Positions 1 through 31,006 of a stretch of 37,154 bases of DNA are shown here, piece after piece. The position numbers and the translations under genes are program-made. Origin of the DNA: Chiloscyllium plagiosum (taxonomy: Eukaryota). Location of the stretch: contig NC_057757.1 in NCBI RefSeq assembly GCF_004010195.1, forward strand, positions 597,996-635,149. Reading direction: 5' to 3'. Each line of letters starts with the position of its first letter. The stretch's first letter is position 1. Under the pieces are notes generated by a model that was not told the DNA's origin, did not search any database, and saw nothing but the letters and a program-made list of their open reading frames with translations.

Positions 1-260
1 CCCAGGGTTATACAGTGACAGACCTGTCCCCACCAGTACTGTCCCCCAGTGTTATAGAGTGACAGACCTTTACCCACAAGTACTGTCCCCCAGTGTTATA
101 CAGTGACAGACCTGTCCCCACCAGTACCGTATCCCAGGGTTATACATTGACAGACCTGTCCCCACCAGAACTGTACCCCAGTGTTATACATTGACAGACC
201 AGTCCCCACTAGTATTGTACCCCAGCATTGTACAGCAACACACCTGTCCCCACGAGTACT
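1..260. repeat. 44-bp minisatellite, ~6 units (cccagtgttatacagtgacagacctgtccccaccagtactgtnc), running off the window start
   Basis: cccag(g/t)gttata-type unit starts at 1, 45, 89, 133, 177, 221 (exact 44-nt period). Confidence 0.95.
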
Positions 261-409
261 CTGGTGATAAACTGGGAGTGCTACCCAGTTTTTAGCAAGC
301 ATAGTCTAACTATATGTGGGATAAGTAGTGATGTGAACTGGTTGAGGTTTACAATGGAAGATCTGAGGTTGATGTTTTAAAGCAATCTGAATTTCCGTTT
401 CCCTTTTAG

Positions 410-3510: not shown

Positions 3511-4665
3511 ATCATTAATAAAACACTGCTGCACAATGATGTGGGCAAGGATTACAAAAAGAAATTTGCATGAAACGTTCTTTGCCCAAAATGAAAATAT
3601 CAACTTCTTAAAGCAAATAATTTCTTCCACTTTGGTGTGGATGGTTGGTCGGGCACGGTTTATTACTTGGCTGGAACTCTAACCACCCAATAATGATTGC
3701 CTTTTCAAATCGGGTTTTACTTACTCCGTCCTTTACAATATATTGTAACGACTGCTACTGAAAGAACAGTGACTGCTCCCTTCATTCCCTTCCTCCACAT
3801 CCTCTCAAACATAAAGAGTCATTGTCACAAGTGGTCAGCCTTTAACAGAAGATTCTGATGTCCGGGATACTGAGATTTTGATTTGGTTGCCAAGATGATG
3901 ACATTCAGTATCTTATAAGCTACATTCAAGTATTCCGTTCAGATGATATCCCTAATCAGTGATTACTCAAATGCATCTGGGGCTTCCCATGCCAGTTTGT
4001 TCCACCATCCACTTCCATATTTAATGAGCGTACATCCAACCTTCCCATTCTGGGGTTTGTGGTACATTTGTAGCTCCAGCTATTCCTGCTGTCTCTTGTG
4101 GATTTTGTTTTCTTTTGTAAAGGGAAGGGAGTGGTTAGCAGGGTAATTCAGCAATTGTGGGAAATGAATGTGTACTATATATCTCATCTTGTGGCAAGTT
4201 CCATTTGGGTATCTGCACATGGTGACAGTGAAATCTGGAGGTGACTATATGGCTGCAGCATCAGACTTAAATCCTCAAACACAATGGAGCATTAATGAGA
4301 GTGCTTTATCAGGATGAGGTTAGGCCCATTGTGAAATCCAGTGTTGTACCATCTATGTTCATTTAATCCAAGTTATTTTTAAAAGTAACAATTCTGTTGT
4401 TGGTCTGTTATTAATTGATCCATTAGCTTCCTGTTTCTACACACTGAGTCTGCTCTGCCATTCAATCATGGCTATATGTTTCTCAACACTTGCCTTTTCG
4501 CTCTAACCTTTGATTCCCTTACTAATCAGGAACCTATTTATCATTAGGAGGGATTTTAATATTTGTGATGTGCACTCACGAGTAATGTTCTCTGCATGTG
4601 TTATAAAGTTACTTTTGACTTTGGGATTGCAGCTATAAAGTAATTTGCTTCACTTTCCTTTTCAG

Positions 4666-4716
4666 AATGTCGCAAGGCAAAACAATGACAGTGATTGTGG
4701 AGCTTTTGTACTTCAG
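4666..4716 (+). CDS. SENP3: SENP3 penultimate coding exon with catalytic Cys (NVARQNNDSDCGAFVLQ)
   Basis: ttccttttcag acceptor and CAG|gtgtgt donor; Q-x-N-x-x-D-C-G Ulp1/C48 motif, identical to recalled human SENP3. Confidence 0.95.
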
Positions 4717-7566: not shown

Positions 7567-8240
7567 NNNNNNNNNNNNNNNNNNNNNNNNNNNNNNNNNN
7601 NNNNNNNNNNNNNNNNNNNNNNNNNNNNNNNNNNNNNNNNNNNNNNNNNNNNNNNNNNNNNNNNNNNNNNNNNNNNNNNNNNNNNNNNNNNNNNNNNNNN
7701 NNNNNNNNNNNNNNNNNNNNNNNNNNNNNNNNNNNNNNNNNNNNNNNNNNNNNNNNNNNNNNNNNNNNNNNNNNNNNNNNNNNNNNNNNNNNNNNNNNNN
7801 NNNNNNNNNNNNNNNNNNNNNNNNNNNNNNNNNNNNNNNNNNNNNNNNNNNNNNNNNNNNNNNNNNNNNNNNNNNNNNNNNNNNNNNNNNNNNNNNNNNN
7901 NNNNNNNNNNNNNNNNNNNNNNNNNNNNNNNNNNNNNNNNNNNNNNNNNNNNNNNNNNNNNNNNNNNNNNNNNNNNNNNNNNNNNNNNNNNNNNNNNNNN
8001 NNNNNNNNNNNNNNNNNNNNNNNNNNNNNNNNNNNNNNNNNNNNNNNNNNNNNNNNNNNNNNNNNNNNNNNNNNNNNNNNNNNNNNNNNNNNNNNNNNNN
8101 NNNNNNNNNNNNNNNNNNNNNNNNNNNNNNNNNNNNNNNNNNNNNNNNNNNNNNNNNNNNNNNNNNNNNNNNNNNNNNNNNNNNNNNNNNNNNNNNNNNN
8201 NNNNNNNNNNNNNNNNNNNNNNNNNNNNNNNNNNNNNNNN
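7567..8240. other. Assembly gap (674 N)
   Basis: Run of n. Confidence 1.
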
Positions 8241-9059: not shown

Positions 9060-9170
9060 TTCTGTAAGTGTCTGGCTCTGGGACAACCGTTCAGCTTCAC
9101 CCAGCAGGACATGCCCAAGCTCCGGCGCCAGATCTATAAGGAACTTTGCAACTGCAAGCTGATTGTGTGA
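9060..9170 (+). CDS. SENP3: SENP3 last coding exon ([36 protein letters not shown])
   Basis: tgtttcag acceptor; matches recalled human SENP3 C-terminus [39 protein letters not shown] at 9168-9170. Confidence 0.96.
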
Positions 9171-21904: not shown

Positions 21905-22195
21905 TTTTAAAATGGCATTTTTTTTTTGTCTGTCTCTCTCTCTCTCTCTTTCCGGAAGTGATCAATTCGCGACGTGTCAACCGAACGTGTTGATCAGGGC
22001 GGGGCGACGCCGCCAGGAATGGGCGGGACCGGACGTTCGCGGGACCAATCAGGGGCTCGGCCGCATGCTGAGCGACGGGAGCCGCCACCAATCGGCGGGT
22101 GCGGGTGGGCGGGGCCGGGACGGCCAGCAGGTTCGGCTGCGCCCGCCGGCCGCCTATAAGAGGGAGAAGCAGCGTCGCCCCCGCTCTCTCTGCTG
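21905..22195 (+). promoter_or_regulatory. EIF4A1 CpG-island promoter: YY1-like 21909-21916, ETS 21952-21960, CCAAT 22045 and 22088, GC boxes, TATA 22155, pyrimidine-tract (TOP/TCT-like) start ~22184
   Basis: aaaatggc, ccggaagtg, ccaatc x2, gggcgggg, tataagag, and ctctctct ~30 nt after TATA; CpG-rich ~21950-22960. Confidence 0.85.
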
Positions 22196-22317
22196 TGGCG
22201 GGCGCGGCGACTGAAGGCGTGTTTAAAGAGCGGGTGTGTGTGTGTGGGGGGATAAAAAATTAAAAGTCTTGTCGCTATCTGACCTTTCCCAACGAAAAAA
22301 AAAACGGAAAATTTATA

Positions 22318-22343
22318 ATGTCAGAAGACGGCGCGGAATACAG
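22318..22343 (+). CDS. EIF4A1: eIF4A1 exon 1 (MSEDGAEY-R)
   Basis: First ATG after the promoter, A at -3; CAG|gtatca phase-2 donor joins exon 2 in frame. Confidence 0.8.
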
Positions 22344-23843
22344 GTATCACAAACGGGGCGGGAGTATGCCTTAAAAGAAAGGGCTGGCGAACGAAATCGG
22401 TCTCCATTCATAAATCGAATTCGTGTTGAATGACATGAGTTAGGGGAAAAAAAAACTGTGCCACAAAATGGCCGGACGCTGGGAATGGAAGAGGTGGGGG
22501 TGGGGAGGGGAAAAAAGGGAGATTTTCATATTGCTGTCGTCTCGGTTTTCCCTTTAAACCCCGCTCCCGTCAAAACTTTTTATTTTTTTTTATATATATT
22601 TTATTCTTGAAAGAGAAAATTGAGCGAGGGGACAATGGCTTTTTGACTTGGCCTTACCTTGTGTCTCCGTGTACTCGCCCGCGACCGGTTGGTCGGTTGG
22701 AACCAACGGTCGTTTTAATTTTGTAATCGGACCGTCCGAATTGGCCGCTGGTGGGGGGGGTTGGGGTGGTGTCCCGCTCCCCGTACAACTCCTCCGGGCA
22801 CTTTCTGGGGGGGGGGTGGAGAGAAGTGGGCTGGGCCATGCGTCTCGCCAGTGCGCAGGCGCTGCGCTGCACCCTCCCACCTCCGGCCCGCGCCATGGTG
22901 TCCGCATGGATCCCCGCGCTACGCATGCGTGCTCACTTCCGCATCTCTTAGTAGTTAGGTTTGGGGGGGCGGCGGGAGAGAAAGAAGATCTATAACAAAT
23001 TATATAGAGAGGCCTGATGATAACCGGCGCAAAGGGTTTGAGACACTGGGGTGTGATGATACTGGGTGTAGAGGGTTGAGCAAGTTATAAATTCGCGGGT
23101 GGAGAGGGGGCTTAAGAAACGGTACACGGGGGGAGGGGGTGGGAAGATGATAACCAGTCGGGGAGCGGGTTCAAGAAATTATACGGTGGTTCAATATGTT
23201 AGCGGTCTTGGGGCATTGTACAAGAGCATGATCCCCGCTGGGTGTGGCTTTGAGTTCGACAAGGGTGTGATAATGCCGTTGGGAGGTTTAAGGAGTTGTA
23301 CAAGGATACAGTTATATCCTGTGGGGGGATTTAAGGAGTTAGGGTTACAATGGTCCTTAATGGGGTTTCATGAAGTAGACCTGGCTGTGACCAAACCCTG
23401 AAGAGGTGTCAGTGGAGTTTGATTGCCTGGTCAGTCTCTTGAGACTAACTTCCCCATCCTATTTGGGGACATCAGGAATCAGCCATTTGAGCCATTGTCT
23501 GACCAATGTTTGCTCCATAGGGGTGAAAGTCTTCCCCTTTCTCATAAATCTTGTGTAATACTCGTCAGTTTGTTTTATAAGTGAAAGTGGAAGTTCAGCT
23601 TCTGATTGCTAATGTGTTATTACACCATTTGAACACTGCAGTGACCCTATCAATCTCACCTTTGTGGTAATTTCCTTTTCTTTTCCTGCTCCCAATCATG
23701 TCTGTGTTGCATCTTGGGTCTTGGAATCCTCACTCTTATTTGCATTCCCACCTTTTTAATACTGAGCAATTGTGTACCGGTGTTGAATTTCTTAAAATAT
23801 TGTCTTAATTTGAAATGTGACACTTACTGATTTTACTTTTCAG

Positions 23844-23895
23844 ATCTAATGATCATGGTGGACCTGATAGAATGGAACCTGAGGGTGTTATTGAG
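23844..23895 (+). CDS. EIF4A1: eIF4A1 exon 2 (SNDHGGPDRMEPEGVIE)
   Basis: ttttcag / GAG|gtgagt; eIF4A N-terminal GP.GMEPEGVIE motif. Confidence 0.93.
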
Positions 23896-24014
23896 GTGAG
23901 TGAAATGAGGCTATGGGCTGAATGTGTTGGTGAGTAGTTTTGAACTTGTACAGTTGCAGTAATGCATATGCTTGACTGTATTTCCATGTGCCCTGGGTTG
24001 CTTAACACTTGGTG

Positions 24015-24155
24015 TGTCCCCATTCATTTGGCAAGGAGGTACCTTTTTGCTGTGGTACTGTAATTTGGTCTCAGTTGGGGTATACTAATGAATCCATATT
24101 CATCCCAGTGTGTTCTAATAATGAATCTACACTGGTTCATACTATGGTCACAAGA
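24015..24155 (+). ncRNA. SNORA48: H/ACA snoRNA SNORA48 homolog, copy 1 (intron 2)
   Basis: Two hairpins, H box atacta 24082-24087, ACA 24150-24152; 3' pocket TTCATC/TTCAT complementary to 28S AUGAA-U-G-GAUGAA; resembles recalled human ACA48 (EIF4A1-hosted). Confidence 0.85.
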
Positions 24156-24691
24156 TGTTGCATGAGACCGTGTACTGAAATCTATTACACTGTCAATCTA
24201 CATTTCCTGGGGAAGGGAATTCAAAAGCTATTTAACCTCTGGCGAAAGTTTTTGCTGTGGTCCCAAATGGTGAACACCTATCTAGTGCAAGGGGCCCTAG
24301 TATTAATTTCTCCATTTTGAAATCAGCATTTGCCTGTTTGGCTCTGTTCATTGAGATGTAATGTAGCAGGCGATCACTCTTGGTGAAATCTCTGCAGTGG
24401 CTCTTTGTCCTGTTCTTGCGCCCCATGTCTTTGGTGTGACTGAGTGATTGCTTCATGGAGGACCATTGTGAAATCAAAAGCTGATTTCCATATGGAAATA
24501 TCTACAGATGTTGGTTTTTATTGTTTTCTTTCTGTGGCTGTTGGTATGTCTTAACACACTGGAGAGGACCCTTCTGAAGGTGTTTTCTCGAGTTTCTCTT
24601 ATGATCAGTGAATCTTGAGCTTGAAGGCTGATGCAGTTGAGCCAAAGCATTGCTTTGCTTCCATTGACATTTTGAATGCTTGCATTTGCAG

Positions 24692-24824
24692 AGCAACTGG
24701 ACTGAGATTGTCGATAACTTTGATGACATGAACCTTCGGGAAAACCTGCTCCGTGGAATCTACGCCTATGGTTTTGAGAAGCCATCTGCCATCCAGCAGC
24801 GGGCCATTCTTCCCTGCATCAGGG
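24692..24824 (+). CDS. EIF4A1: eIF4A1 exon 3 (Q motif [13 protein letters not shown])
   Basis: 133 nt, AG/GT flanks. Confidence 0.97.
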
Positions 24825-25055
24825 GTAGGGATTGCACTGCTGTTTCCTGGCCAATCACAGGGGCATGTTTAGTAACAAGGTGATCACAGCATTGAGTGCT
24901 TCTCAAGAATGGTTGGCACTACCATGGGTTTGGAAGTTCATTCCTGGATATGCAGAGATCTCTCAGGGATGGGTTTCATAACGTGAGGAATTGTTTTAGC
25001 ATGCAGCATGATACATTTCCATTTGTATTACACTGCTTTGTGCTGGTTTCCAGTT

Positions 25056-25196
25056 TATCCCCAGTCACTGGGCAAGGAGGTACCATTTGCTGTGGTACTG
25101 TGACTTAATCTGATTTGGGGTATACTAATGAATCCATTATTCATCCCAGTGTGTTCCAACAGTGAATCTACACTGGTTCATACTATGGTCACAAGA
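25056..25196 (+). ncRNA. SNORA48: H/ACA snoRNA SNORA48 homolog, copy 2 (intron 3)
   Basis: Highly similar to 24015-24155; H box 25122-25127, ACA 25191-25193. Confidence 0.87.
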
Positions 25197-25338
25197 TAAT
25201 TGCATGCAAGCACCTGATCATTATTGTAAAGGGGATTGTGGGAGTTAGGCTTAGTAATGGGAGCTTTCTGCCCCAGATTCCTGAGCAGTTGCATTGAACG
25301 GGAGAAAGTAACTTGTGACCTACCTTCCCCTCTTCTAG

Positions 25339-25478
25339 AGTATGATGTCATTGCCCAGGCACAGTCGGGTACAGGAAAAACTGCCACGTTTGCCATCTCT
25401 ATCTTGCAGCAGTTAGATGTGGGCCTGAAGGAGACACAAGCCTTGGTGTTAGCCCCAACGAGGGAGCTTGCCCTACAG
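25339..25478 (+). CDS. EIF4A1: eIF4A1 exon 4 (motif I AQSGTGKT, motif Ia PTRELA)
   Basis: 140 nt, tcttctag / CAG|gtaatt. Confidence 0.97.
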
Positions 25479-25493
25479 GTAATTGTTTGTTTC

Positions 25494-25628
25494 TGCGTGT
25501 AACTTTAAATTGATGGTGGCCCCTGGCTAGTACAGACATTGAAAAATGCACACACAATCACATTGCTCTCAGAGCGGATCTTTGGATTTGTAAGACTCTC
25601 CTTTGTAGAGTTCTTGCAATGTACAGAA
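25494..25628 (+). ncRNA. Candidate H/ACA snoRNA of unassigned family (intron 4)
   Basis: tgcgt/atgca basal stem, H box acacaa 25552-25557, acattgc/gcaatgt basal stem followed directly by ACA 25623-25625; 135 nt. Confidence 0.55.
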
Positions 25629-25676
25629 AACTCCTAGGTAAGCTTTATTTTCTTTTTTCTCTCTTTATTTTCTTAG

Positions 25677-25845
25677 ATTCAGAAGGTCATAGTGGCTTTG
25701 GGTGATTACATGGGTGGGACCTGCTTCTCCTGTATCGGTGGCACCAGTATCCGATCGGACATGCAGAAGTTTCAGCTGGAGGCTCCACACATTGTGGTTG
25801 GGACTCCAGGCCGTGTATTTGATATGATGAACCGGCAGCATCTTT
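25677..25845 (+). CDS. EIF4A1: eIF4A1 exon 5 (GG doublet, TPGRVFD)
   Basis: 169 nt, long polypyrimidine tract + ag / T|gtaagt. Confidence 0.97.
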
Positions 25846-26438
25846 GTAAGTACATGGGTGGAAAGAGTTTAATTTGGGAGATTTGTAGAAGTGCCTCAAG
25901 CTTTATAGAAGGCACACAAGAGGCTGGAAGAGCACAGCAAGCCAGGCAGTATCAGGAGTTGACATTTTTGTTATAACCCTTGGGACTAGAGAGTAGCAGA
26001 ATGTTCAGGTAGTGACAGGTGAATGCAGGTGGTGGGTACGACCTGGTTGGTTGGGAAATCAAGCTTTATAGAGTTTACTTTGCATATCTCAAAAGTGCTT
26101 GCTACCTGCATGTACATCAGTGTAAGAAGCAGCTCATCAAAAGCAGTCACTGTTTTTGACTCCACCTTAAATCTTGAGCAGGATCGTTCTGTGTCTTTGA
26201 ACTCATGGCATCAGGCTATAGTCCAACTGGCTTATTTGAAATCACACTTTCAGAGCATTGCTCCTTTTATCTCATGAAGTTACTAGTTTTTATAAATGAA
26301 ATGATGGCACCTTTTAATTGGAGGGGTGGGTTCAGGGATATTGTTTGGCTTGTGTTGGGGGTTGGGGGCAGGGTGTGGTGGGGGAGAGATCTGATCAGTG
26401 ATGAATTGACTTGGTTTAAGTTTTATTTTAACTTCCAG

Positions 26439-26548
26439 CTACAAGATACATCAAGATGTTTGTTTTGGATGAAGCAGACGAAATGTTGAGTAGAGGGTTC
26501 AAGGACCAAATCTATGAAATATTCCAGAAACTCAACACATCCATTCAG
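26439..26548 (+). CDS. EIF4A1: eIF4A1 exon 6 (DEAD box)
   Basis: 110 nt; [34 protein letters not shown]. Confidence 0.97.
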
Positions 26549-26803
26549 GTACAGCAGCTGTTTGCTGGAGCAGGACCCTGTATAGTTTAAGTCATGTTTG
26601 CAGTCCTCTCTAAAACGAGTTGGTGATTGAAATGGGTATTCCTGGCAACTTGGAGGACCCATCCTGCAGATGCTGTTCAGGATAATTGGTGAAATATCAG
26701 GCATATTGGATCTGAATAACTTGGGTTTTCTGCATCAGTTTGCCACTAAGCTTGAAAGATTAATTCCTAGTTCCAGCTGCTTCTATGTTACTAATATATA
26801 AAT

Positions 26804-26977
26804 TGTCCTTTGCAAGCATCCTGCTGTAGCTGGGAACATTGGTTAATTCTGATGTTCTTAACAATGACAGTTGGATTTGTTGGGACATAGATTAATGCCC
26901 CACCCACATTGACTTGGGAGGAGTGGACCTCTTTCTTAATGTCCAGTGCTTTTACCTGTTGATGTGGTGGCACACTC
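26804..26977 (+). ncRNA. SNORA81: H/ACA snoRNA SNORA81-like (intron 6)
   Basis: Long 5' hairpin tgtcct..gggaca, H box agatta 26889-26894, ACA 26972-26974, 174 nt; gtggacctctttcttaatgtcca (26923-26945) matches recalled human SNORA81. Confidence 0.75.
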
Positions 26978-27033
26978 GCCAAAAGAGCTAACTGAGTGAT
27001 CAGTGTTTGAATACAGTCTTCTATCTCTTCTAG

Positions 27034-27177
27034 GTGGTTTTGCTTTCTGCCACAATGCCTTCTGATGTGCTGGAAGTGACCAAGAAATTCATGCGTGACC
27101 CAATTCGCATTCTTGTGAAGAAAGAGGAGTTGACGCTGGAGGGAATCAGGCAGTTCTACATTAATGTGGAGCGAGAG
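27034..27177 (+). CDS. EIF4A1: eIF4A1 exon 7 (SAT motif III)
   Basis: 144 nt; [48 protein letters not shown]. Confidence 0.97.
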
Positions 27178-27230
27178 GTGAGACACATTGGGACCTCTGC
27201 TTCAGTCGAGAGTTCCAGTCCAATTCAGCC

Positions 27231-27362
27231 TCCAGAAAGCTGTTTGTTTCAGCATGGCTTTGTGCCCTACTGGATTTCAGCTCTCTGGTAGAGAGACCAG
27301 CTGCACTCCACTGTGGATTACAATGTCAGTGTTTTTATGCAACTAAAATGCAGTTGACAGGG
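27231..27362 (+). ncRNA. SNORA4: H/ACA snoRNA SNORA4-like (intron 7)
   Basis: ccagaaagctg/cagctctctgg 5' stem; 3' pocket CTCCAC (27306-27311) + ACTAA (27342-27346) complementary to 18S UUAGU-U-G-GUGGAG, 15 nt from ACA 27357-27359. Confidence 0.78.
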
Positions 27363-27381
27363 TTAGCAGAATTGTGTATGA

Positions 27382-27609
<228 letters not shown>

Positions 27610-27744
27610 TAATTGCACTTCACTTCATGAAAGTTGTATTCCATTGTTAAAATAGGCTGCCCCTGTTTGTAGCAATCTGGTGACCAAATCTGGGGGTGGT
27701 TGTTTTCAATTAGGTATTTTCTCTCCTACGCAGCCCCCCCCTCC

Positions 27745-28430
27745 TCCTGCCAAAATCCCATCTTCCCCTGCCACTGCAGGAATTGCAAAATCTCTGCCTA
27801 CATTCCCCTGCCCTCCCCCCAACCTCTGTTCAAGGCAGAAAGGAGCGCCTCCAATCTAAATGTTTCACCTGCACTTCCCCACAGGCATTTAGTGTACCCA
27901 TTGCTCCCGATGCAGTCTCCTCTACATTGGGGAGACAGGATGCCTACTCGCAGAGGACATCTCCAGGACACTTGCACCAACCAACCCCCACCACCCATGG
28001 CTGAACGTTTTAACTTCCCCCTCCCACTCAAAGGATATGTAATTCCTGGGCCTCCTTCGCAACTCCCTAACCATTTGAGTCCTGGGGGAGGAATGTCTCA
28101 TCTTACACCTCTGGACCCTCCAACCACATGGCATCACTAGATTTTGCAAGTTTCCTCCTTTCCACTCTTACCTGTCCATCTTCCTTCCCACCTACTCGGT
28201 CCACCCTCCCCTCTGACCTATCACCATTACCCCCACCGTCCATCCATCTATTGCACTCAGCTACTCCCAGCCCCACCCCCTCATTTATCTCCACCCCTTA
28301 GGCTCCCAGCCTCAAGGACTTTTGCCCGAAACATCAATTCTCCTGCTCCTTGGATGCTGCTTGCCCTTTGCTTTTTCAGCACCCCACACTCTAATCTCCA
28401 GCATTTGCAGTCCTCCCTTTCACCGTACTT
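27745..28430 (+). mobile_element. Decayed Penelope-like element 3' end (GIY-YIG remnant + terminal repeat) in intron 8
   Basis: CRNCK..AY, FTCTS, ctctacattggggagac (LYIGET) and ttttgcccgaaacatcaattctcctgctcc terminal repeat. Confidence 0.8.
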
Positions 28431-28456
28431 CTCTCCTCACCTCCCCTGTTCCATGA

Positions 28457-28627
<171 letters not shown>

Positions 28628-29109
28628 TAACAGCCTTGTACCAGAGAAGGAGTATATGGCTTGGTATTGTGGTGATCTGCTGAAACTGTTTGAAGTAGAG
28701 CGCAGGGGAGTCTTGTGTGCCACATTCTTTGGATTTTGTAGATTTGGTGAAACATTGGCCTCGCCTGCACAGCAGATTCTGGACTTGGCCCAAGTTCACT
28801 AAATATGCAGTCAATGGTGCATTTTATAAAGCCTTGTCTAGAGCATTCAGTGAAGTGGGTCCCCTTCCTGTGCAGTGAGTGACCTTGCCTGTCGTTGGGT
28901 GGCTATGGTTGACATGAGTTAGGCCACTCGCTTTGGGTGAATGCAATCTGTTTAACTGCTGAAATGGAAACCCAGCCTGGAGGAACCGAGCTGGTCTGGC
29001 AGTATCTGGAGAATGAAATATTTGGCATTGGTTGGTTAAATCAAAAATGTTTGGAAACCACTGTCCCATGTCTGTTGTCATCACTAATAGAGCTACTGGT
29101 TTATTTTAG

Positions 29110-29189
29110 GCTCGTGGAATTGATGTGCAGCAGGTGTCCTTGGTTATCAACTATGATCTGCCTTCCAACCGTGAGAATTATATTCACAG
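29110..29189 (+). CDS. EIF4A1: eIF4A1 exon 10 (motif V ARGID)
   Basis: 80 nt; ARGIDVQQVSLVINYDLPSNRENYIH. Confidence 0.97.
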
Positions 29190-29318
29190 GTAAGTGGTGA
29201 GCAGTGTTTTTTTTTTTCACCACTGGCTGGTGCCTCTGCCTCTATGCAGGTAATCATATCACCCTGCCCCTCGCTCGCTCTCACTTTGCATCCTTGTGCT
29301 CACTCTCTACCCTCGCAG

Positions 29319-29463
29319 AATTGGCCGTGGGGGCCGCTTTGGACGGAAAGGGGTTGCCATCAACCTGATCACTGAAGAGGACAGGCGAACACTTCGTGAC
29401 ATTGAGTCATTCTACAACACTACTGTGGATGAGATGCCAATGAATGTTGCTGATCTGATCTGA
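29319..29463 (+). CDS. EIF4A1: eIF4A1 exon 11 coding part (motif VI, C-terminus ...MPMNVADLI*)
   Basis: [18 protein letters not shown] 29461-29463; exons sum to 1227 nt = 408 aa + stop. Confidence 0.97.
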
Positions 29464-29961
29464 TAGGTTTTCGGAGGCTGAGATTGAGGCTGTGAATGCT
29501 GACTGGCTTACTTGCAGTCAAGGTTTTCTTTTTAAACTCGGTGTTGAGTGTCGTCTGGATGCTCAGAACTGATCATATTGCGTACAACACTGTTGGTGAT
29601 CAGCTTGCTTTTGGAAGAATTCCTTGTCCTTCCTCCTTGTAAGGTTCAGACTGGAAATGGAGGGGGGAGAGGAAATACTTATGGGGTCATTAAAGATTCT
29701 GGGTAAGTACTTTTTCAGGCCCAGTCTTCTCTTAGATGTAGTAGCATTAGATATTTTTCATCATGTAACCATGTATTTGCGGACCCGGAAGTATCACAGA
29801 TGTTTGAAGTCTGCCAACTACGTAAAGCCAGCTTACTTCAGGATAATGTTTTGGGATTCGGAGTGGAGTGTGGGATATCATTCTTGAAATGTGTGCTAAT
29901 CACGGACAGAGATCATGTACAAATCTTGCATTGTCTGTATAGTATTTATTAAATGCTGTTC

Positions 29962-29967
29962 AATAAA
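29962..29967 (+). terminator. EIF4A1 polyadenylation signal
   Basis: AATAAA with upstream TGTA elements and ATTAAA (29948), downstream U/GU-rich sequence. Confidence 0.8.
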
Positions 29968-31006
29968 TTTGTATTTGTTTACATGCATTGTCCTGGGAAT
30001 CTTCAATGGTCTTAACTTTGCTTGACTTGACATGTATATGGAACTTGTACCCTTGTTTTTCCAGAGTAGGAAAACCTATGGGGATAGTGATGACCCTTCA
30101 CTTCATGATGTCTGTGCAGAGCTGTTACTCTGCATGTTGATGGTGTGGGCTGTGTAATCTTGTTGCTCCTCAGTGTTTGTCAGATGAGTGTGCATAGTGC
30201 CTGTATAGGGCTTCCCACTTCATTCTTCATGGCCACAGTACAGTGAGTGGCTCTCCTATGTCTATTCTCTTGTGCACCTGGATTTGGTTATTGCACTTTA
30301 TAAAGTCATGTATTATTGAACATTAAACTTGGTATAAGAATCAGCACTGATGTCTTCATATTCTTTCACTAATTGCTCCAGCTCTGCTGCTGTTGTACTA
30401 AGTGCAGAACAAGACTAAAGATGTCAGTTAAAGTTTTTGGATTTGTTTAAAATAGTCCAGAGGTCAATCCACCAGCTTATACCAAAGATATACATTGTCC
30501 CTCAGTAACAGTCTCCAAGAGAGCTTTTGGTTTCCCTTGACCCAATCAGTTTGGGCTTCATTACAACCTTGGGATGGAAACATGTAAACTGAAAAACCCT
30601 TCCCTTTTCTGTAGCTAATTTTCAGATGCCTCCCTGACCTTTAGGTGGTGCCATTTGCTTGTTTGGCTGCATGCTACAGATCAACACATTCAAGGCACTT
30701 TTTAAAACAGTTGCTTCAAAAAAAAAGTGGACATGCTGTGATTTTTGTAACATCAGACTCCATATGCATTTCAGATGTGAAAGTGACTCTGGGGGGGGGG
30801 CAGGTGTGGGCCAAAAAGGCAGGCAGTTTTGAGGTAGGATGTTTCAGCTGTTGAAGAGGTTTGAGGTCAGTCAGATGGGGTAAGATGGCTTTGTTGTATT
30901 ATCATACCATGAGCTTCTGTATAAGTAGTCTAATGTTCTGGTAACCTGGGTTTGAATCCCTCCATGAAAGTTGGTAGAATTGAGAATGGTTTCACATCTG
31001 TCAATA

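Follow-up and report, generated by a model that had tools for sequence, protein, structure and literature searches.

The eIF4A genes of vertebrates serve as hosts for small nucleolar RNAs (snoRNAs), and the described sets fall into two clusters. As tabulated for Xenopus, one cluster comprises three copies of SNORA48 together with SNORD10 and SNORA67, and the other comprises SNORD2, SNORA81, SNORA63 and SNORA4 (PMC6984369); that table gives no host names, and the order of the human RNAs suggests that the clusters belong to eif4a1 and eif4a2, respectively. The movement of snoRNAs between introns and between genes has also been documented in vertebrates, in the form of intragenic translocation, cis and trans duplication, and the shuffling of guide pockets (PMC2653536; PMC6984369), and movement and duplication of these kinds would explain the layout described here. 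This report concerns a stretch of 37,154 nucleotides from the shark Chiloscyllium plagiosum (assembly GCF_004010195.1, contig NC_057757.1, forward-strand positions 597,996 to 635,149), referred to below as the window and numbered from its first letter. Within it, a single eIF4A gene, EIF4A1 by position, holds four H/ACA RNA candidates in introns 2, 3, 6 and 7, which by sequence are two SNORA48-like RNAs, one SNORA81 homolog and one SNORA4-like RNA. The last two belong to the human EIF4A2 set, as a sequence-only reading of the window had proposed, and we lean modestly toward the view that they descend from the eIF4A gene that preceded the genome duplication of vertebrates and were later brought to introns 6 and 7 by shifts inside the gene.

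Set beside the human and Xenopus EIF4A1 cluster, the shark gene has the same SENP3-linked host, SNORA48 RNAs with pockets for positions 3674 and 3797 of 28S rRNA (28S-3674 and 28S-3797), an extra SNORA48 as in Xenopus, and, as its 3'-most H/ACA RNA, one with a pocket for 18S-1347, comparable to Xenopus SNORA67. However, it lacks detectable SNORD10, an RNA fitting the SNORA67 model and an 18S-1445 pocket, and it has a SNORA81 homolog, which the human, frog and zebrafish EIF4A1-type clusters do not list. With the EIF4A2 cluster of bony vertebrates it shares the 18S-1347 pocket and homologs of SNORA81 and SNORA4, which follow one another in the same order; on the other hand, these RNAs occupy introns 6 and 7 where bony vertebrates use 7 and 9, neither SNORD2 nor SNORA63 was found in the shark gene, and the 28S-4606 pocket of SNORA81 is broken. 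The bony-vertebrate side of this comparison comes from an exact search of metagenome contigs for the SNORA81 loop motif, which yielded 17 loci, 13 of them matching the SNORA81 model at E-values up to 1. Two of the 17 are eIF4A genes, both EIF4A2 by residues: L006, apparently sauropsid-like, carries SNORD2 in intron 3, SNORA81 in intron 7, SNORA63 in intron 8 and SNORA4 in intron 9, and L013, apparently fish-like, also carries SNORA81 in intron 7, and its intron 9 holds an RNA with an 18S-1347 pocket. A table for chicken gives the same introns for three of these RNAs (PMC2653536).

The four RNAs, all on the plus strand and all noticed in the sequence-only reading, are borne out by Rfam, by alignment to L006, by their boxes and by copy identity. 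An ACA box stands three bases from the 3' end of each (24150, 25191, 26972 and 27357, the ends being those of the Rfam alignments), as had been claimed; the accompanying claim of an H box in all four holds for three, with canonical ANANNA at 24082, 25122 and 26889, and fails for the intron-7 RNA, which has AGAGAG at the expected place. The three sets of intact guide pockets reported earlier were also recovered, in both SNORA48-like copies (28S-3797, with 28S-3674 in the intron-3 copy) and in the intron-7 RNA (18S-1347), leaving SNORA81 as the RNA that fails. Fitting pockets lie 14-15 bases from their boxes, and 14-16 is expected for the SNORA48 family. The weight of this evidence lies in finding the right site in the right family's RNA, not in the number of matches returned by a scan.

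The SNORA81 homolog of intron 6 (26802..26977) matches Rfam SNORA81 (RF01241) at 46 bits over a cut-off of 45, the sole match at gathering level in the whole window, and it probably already bears this label in the automatic genome annotation. Alignment of the L006 SNORA81 to shark intron 6 scores 64 (mean 30 and maximum 44 in 100 shuffles), the two hairpins fold with z-scores of -4.4 and -2.6, and two-sided changes affect 20 of 29 predicted pairs of the 5' hairpin across nine copies, a pattern that argues for a single family. Another, weak match, in intron 4 (p 0.02, out of 60 comparisons made), is attributable to chance. Within the 3' hairpin, a stem-loop at 26923..26948, with a 12-base loop at 26929-26940, agrees with the Rfam consensus at all 26 of its bases; the loop's match to the fetched loci follows by construction from the exact motif search, whereas its match to the consensus does not. 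Outside a core of 20 bases, the shark RNA is only 41-44% identical to the vertebrate copies of L006 and L013.

Against the human/Xenopus target, from which shark 28S may differ, the 5' pocket of the intron-6 RNA for 28S-4606 fails, its 5' strand giving six pairs and its 3' strand at most two in any of five registers; the same test was passed by L006 (9.5) and L013 (12). Pockets for 28S-4401 and 28S-4470 were tried as well, and none of the three was workable. About three bases are absent below the shark pocket relative to all eight other copies, and in the predicted fold the two pocket strands pair with each other, closing the pocket. The shark copy is thus predicted to have lost 28S-4606 guiding and was likely kept for its 3' loop. 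The same loop persists under different pockets elsewhere, i.e., 28S-4470 and 28S-4401 in copies hosted by RPL32 and 28S-4606 in EIF4A2 copies of vertebrates, suggesting that the loop has a function of its own. A by-eye search of printed human and Xenopus 18S and 28S rRNA for partners of the loop gave only purine-rich matches of 8-9 pairs, no better than chance. The alternative, which bears on function only, is that the RNA is a decaying pseudogene and its loop a leftover. The missing pockets, the bases gone from below the pocket, the long branch described below and an Rfam score just 1 bit over the cut-off all speak for decay; against it stand the match to the consensus at every one of 26 bases beside about 43% identity in the rest, the two hairpins, which still fold well, and the retained H and ACA boxes. 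The pseudogene seems less likely than not.

The remaining 15 loop-bearing loci lie outside eIF4A. Nine are RPL32 genes, closely related and hence not independent, three are RPL27A, one is HSP90, one appears to be bacterial and the last could not be placed. RNAs combining the SNORA81 loop with SNORA21-type pockets lie in RPL32 introns of L001, L004, L007 (4240-4418), L010 (5137-5315 and 6040-6184), L012 and L014-L017, the genes of L001 and L010 each holding two. Among the 19 motif copies tested, all 11 RPL32-hosted ones have a 13-pair pocket for 28S-4470 and score 8.5-11 for 28S-4401, the SNORA21 sites, and the other eight reach at most 6.5 for 28S-4470. The last intron of RPL27A (three loci) or an HSP90 intron beside SNORD12 holds the RNAs of L003 (2308-2486), L008 (2422-2600, minus strand), L009 (1398-1580) and L011 (55-245, minus strand), whose pocket strands are unlike those of vertebrates. 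The 28S-4470 pocket is listed as the equivalent of yeast snR10, and the L007 RNA weakly matches both SNORA21 and the fungal Rfam family Afu_182 (32 bits), which may point to kinship among SNORA81, SNORA21 and Afu_182. Unlike these non-vertebrate RNAs, the shark copy has neither the 28S-4470 nor the 28S-4401 pocket, and the SNORA21 consensus is without the loop.

In the SNORA4-like RNA of intron 7 (27229..27362), Rfam SNORA4 (RF00394) matches 27229-27361 at 32 bits (E 0.1 over 10 kb, 0.006 over 583 bases), under its cut-off of 56, and so, of the two EIF4A2-type names given in the sequence-only reading, SNORA81 is upheld by its model at gathering level and SNORA4 is not. Since the SNORA4 in intron 9 of the non-mammalian L006 EIF4A2 also scores only 32.6 bits, the shortfall is in part a matter of distance from the model. 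End to end, the L006 RNA aligns to shark intron 7 with a score of 60 (mean 28 and maximum 47 in 100 shuffles), and the 3' pocket for 18S-1347 (27306-27311/27342-27346) offers 6+5 Watson-Crick pairs 15 bases from the ACA box. The nearest ANANNA is AGACCA, four bases after the expected H position (27294). The intron-9 RNA of L013, SNORA4-like by its pocket, scores 20 against shark intron 7, not above chance. That fish-like RNA (140-305, minus strand) carries the 18S-1347 pocket and goes unreported by Rfam at E up to 1; the Rfam SNORA4 model misses or under-scores non-mammalian members. With a model built from three sequences, no second copy appeared in 22000-30000, and none in intron 9.

Among the RNAs of the first cluster, Xenopus SNORA67 is reported to guide 18S-1347 besides 18S-1445 (PMC6984369). 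Because the Xenopus forms of SNORA4 and SNORA67 share an 18S site and each RNA closes its human cluster, the two may be duplicates. The chances seem about even that the intron-7 RNA is the EIF4A1-line sister of SNORA4, with SNORA67 as its tetrapod form. In human EIF4A1, SNORA67 lies in intron 9 and SNORA48 in intron 3.

The SNORA48-like pair occupies introns 2 (24015..24155) and 3 (25057..25196). Rfam SNORA48 (RF00554) scores the intron-3 copy at 21.8 bits and the intron-2 copy at 12.7 bits (E 9), both below the gathering cut-off of 50, hence the label SNORA48-like. The intron-3 copy fits both pockets, with 9+4 pairs for 28S-3674 (25066-25074/25107-25110) and 6+5 for 28S-3797 (25140-25145/25177-25181); in the intron-2 copy the 28S-3797 pocket is intact at 6+5 pairs, and that for 28S-3674 is weakened by one mismatch and two wobbles. 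The copies are identical at 122 of 140 positions (87%), and their flanks at only 58 of 109 and 54 of 111. Given this identity and the three copies of Xenopus, the second SNORA48 appears to have arisen late, by local duplication. The SNORA48 pattern also occurred at 21 loci in genome contigs and one in viral contigs, all labelled as prokaryote or virus, and the one examined, L037, was a chance match.

Two EIF4A2-type families sitting in one EIF4A1-position gene favour common descent over two independent jumps, and the distance of the shark SNORA81 from the bony-vertebrate copies, with which it groups weakly (77/82) on a branch of 0.89, is in keeping with an old split. Descent from the pre-duplication gene would run as follows. 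Each RNA would be cut from its spliced intron and loaded with H/ACA proteins, as is established for the class; the predicted sites of guided pseudouridine formation are 28S-3797 for both SNORA48 copies, 28S-3674 for the intron-3 copy and 18S-1347 for the intron-7 RNA. After the duplication, each of the two eIF4A paralogs would have retained part of a common snoRNA pool, with RNAs copied into neighbouring introns, as the SNORA48 pair illustrates, and with losses differing by lineage.

A number of observations weigh against the four RNAs themselves or against this account of their history. Three of the four RNAs fall under their Rfam gathering cut-offs; those other than SNORA81 have weak folding z-scores (-1.0 to -1.9), and folds with an open pocket lie 2-8 kcal/mol above the free minimum, those of the SNORA48-like copies forming only when constrained. 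Scanning the introns for pockets gave six matches (mean 4.0 and maximum 8 in 30 shuffles), which alone is not above chance, and the pocket targets come from the human/Xenopus rRNA alignment in the supplement of PMC6984369, not from shark rRNA. There was no match to SNORA67 (RF00272) at E up to 10 in introns 7 and 9, and no 18S-1445 pocket was found, non-mammalian SNORA67 sequences lying outside the comparison. The long SNORA81 branch would also fit the fast decay of a younger copy. The six snoRNAs tabulated for zebrafish eif4a1a are 127-139 bases long, none of SNORA81 length, and the five for eif4a2 include two of 179 and 190 bases, in a table without family names (PMC11880993). The 13 non-vertebrate loop loci in RPL32, RPL27A or HSP90 indicate a family that passes easily from host to host, and that SNORA81 was ancestrally seated in eIF4A is therefore not established. 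The intron comparison covers the EIF4A2 genes of L006 and L013 and the chicken table. Lastly, in an LG+G4 tree of 22 proteins the window group is sister to EIF4A2 at 64/85; the position of the protein depends on the model, and its sequence alone does not settle A1 versus A2.

The readiness with which the family moves, with members in four host genes among the 17 loci, also argues for a different history, in which retroposition or ectopic recombination carried copies of SNORA81 and SNORA4 from EIF4A2 into EIF4A1 within the cartilaginous-fish line, once the duplication had taken place. Paralogous hosts are among the destinations of snoRNA copying named in the literature (PMC2653536), the EIF4A1-type clusters of human, frog and zebrafish list no SNORA81, and the new intron positions are consistent with insertion. 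Such a transfer would nonetheless require two families to land in one paralog, and it sits poorly with the deep divergence from the bony EIF4A2 copies and with exons 6-8, which show no block of A2-type residues around the RNAs. Gene conversion as the carrier is not favoured, and the changed intron positions speak against conversion by homology. Transfer strikes us as unlikely.

The sequence-only reading had gone further, taking the gene as a snapshot of the pre-duplication cassette that reciprocal loss later divided between the mammalian paralogs. RNAs of both human sets do occur in one gene, as that idea predicts. However, introns 6 and 7 are not the introns 7 and 9 of EIF4A2, four of the seven human families cannot be detected, the SNORA81 copy did not pass as a guide, the second SNORA48 seems to be a late addition, and the paralog split is already present in the frog and fish tables and hence is not mammalian. 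The layout is not a frozen cassette, given the differing introns, the missing families and the local duplication of one RNA, and its survival as such is quite improbable; most of the two human snoRNA sets combined was either lost from the shark gene or never present in it. Reciprocal loss may in addition be the wrong description for SNORA4, Xenopus SNORA67 guiding the same 18S site. The absent families are SNORD2, SNORD10, SNORA63 and SNORA67, none detectable in the eIF4A gene by Rfam, alignment or guide-motif scans; for SNORD10 and SNORA67 this agrees with the sequence-only reading, Rfam and the pocket and guide searches likewise giving no match. The L006 SNORD2 scores at chance level against all ten shark introns, and SNORD2 and SNORD10 guide motifs occur in the window at chance (seven matches against 9.65 expected in one scan, and four against 3.0, with none of these four in the gene, in the other). 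By eye, a SNORD2 remnant was considered in intron 5 and a SNORD10 remnant at 26183-26213, neither matching Rfam at E up to 10, and a SNORA63 remnant in intron 8 reached only p 0.14. The intron-5 segment (26296-26400) has C-box-like and D-box-like motifs and a short terminal stem reminiscent of SNORD2, with the guide absent and the match at chance.

The host gene spans 22318..29463 on the plus strand, with 11 coding exons for 408 amino acids and GT-AG boundaries at every intron; introns 2, 3, 6 and 7 lie at 23896-24691, 24825-25338, 26549-27033 and 27178-27459. It is directly downstream of SENP3, to which the sequence-only reading had linked it, the last coding exon of that gene (9060..9170, plus strand) matching SENP3 at 59 bits, SENP5 at 51.2 and SENP1 at 20 by phmmer against PDB; an earlier SENP3 exon lies at 4666-4716. 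A teleost gene model fuses SENP3 with an A1-type eIF4A, and A2-type models are fused to cystatin or LRAT domains. Based on this SENP3 neighbour and on both kinds of fusion, the gene is EIF4A1 by position, and it is synteny, not the protein tree, that decides. Cartilaginous fishes have a separate EIF4A2, as Callorhinchus P0074 and Pristiophorus P0115 pair within that clade in protein trees. The window protein clusters apart from these, with Narcine (P0001, 98.5% identity), Scyliorhinus (P0002, 386/390), Leucoraja and Callorhinchus P0047. In a quick LG+C20 search with 36 proteins, this group falls inside EIF4A1 with support of 94; an approximately unbiased (AU) test does not reject grouping with bony-vertebrate EIF4A1 (p 0.44). 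The trees excluded fragmentary or fused rows (10 dropped from the LG+C20 set), and their outgroups were distant, one of them fungal. On the possibility that phylogeny and synteny might instead mark the gene as EIF4A2, synteny thus answers for EIF4A1 and the tree remains model-dependent. Diagnostic sites number eight A1, ten A2 and one other. Least probable is that the gene is a third duplicate or an old A1/A2 recombinant with mixed residues and mixed RNAs, as the LG+G4 placement, the 10 of 19 A2-type sites and the database names of close elasmobranch relatives (both 4A-I-like and 4A-II-like) could suggest, since it has SENP3 as neighbour, its A1 and A2 sites are interleaved over the exons without forming blocks, the pattern expected of retained ancestral states, and the EIF4A1 grouping is not rejected and is favoured by the mixture model.

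Several other features of the locus were observed. The promoter (22120-22343) is GC-rich; a TATA-like box lies near 22155 and a stretch of pyrimidines near 22182. A start of the TCT or terminal oligopyrimidine (TOP) type is expected in snoRNA host genes, and these features fit. Exon 5 (25677-25845) and exon 8 carry elasmobranch-specific changes in otherwise conserved eIF4A stretches (e.g. CFSC in place of CHAC and, in exon 8, L in place of H), common to the Narcine, Scyliorhinus and Leucoraja proteins. At 27720-28440, intron 8, the intron that holds SNORA63 in EIF4A2, is expanded by C-rich, repeat-like DNA, of which 28310-28424 matches four other sites in the window. Within the last SENP3 intron, a 674-N assembly gap (7567-8240) is flanked by DNA resembling long interspersed nuclear elements.

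The shark gene shows that the tidy division of snoRNAs between human EIF4A1 and EIF4A2 is not universal, and it offers a specific example in which non-coding passengers can be followed through the genome duplication of vertebrates, albeit a modest one, the processes themselves being known. In the literature covered, outside which fall most subscription papers and preprint supplements, nothing on point was found about snoRNAs common to both eIF4A paralogs, about those of sharks or about a link between SNORA81 and SNORA21. More speculatively, and with no great expectation that all of it is right, the invariant 12-base 3' loop would represent a second, older job of SNORA81 that is independent of guiding; the shark EIF4A1 copy would be a pocket-less relic from before the duplication, retained only for its loop, a single snR10-like RNA would have given rise to both SNORA81 and SNORA21, and SNORA4 and SNORA67 would be unrecognised duplicates of the genome doubling. 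Of the two leads, the loop of SNORA81 is the stronger. Knock-down of SNORA81 is reported to slow ovarian cancer cells independently of the host gene (PMC8759569). SNORA81 is usually interpreted through 28S-4606, and a natural copy with the loop and without the pocket makes a non-guide function testable.

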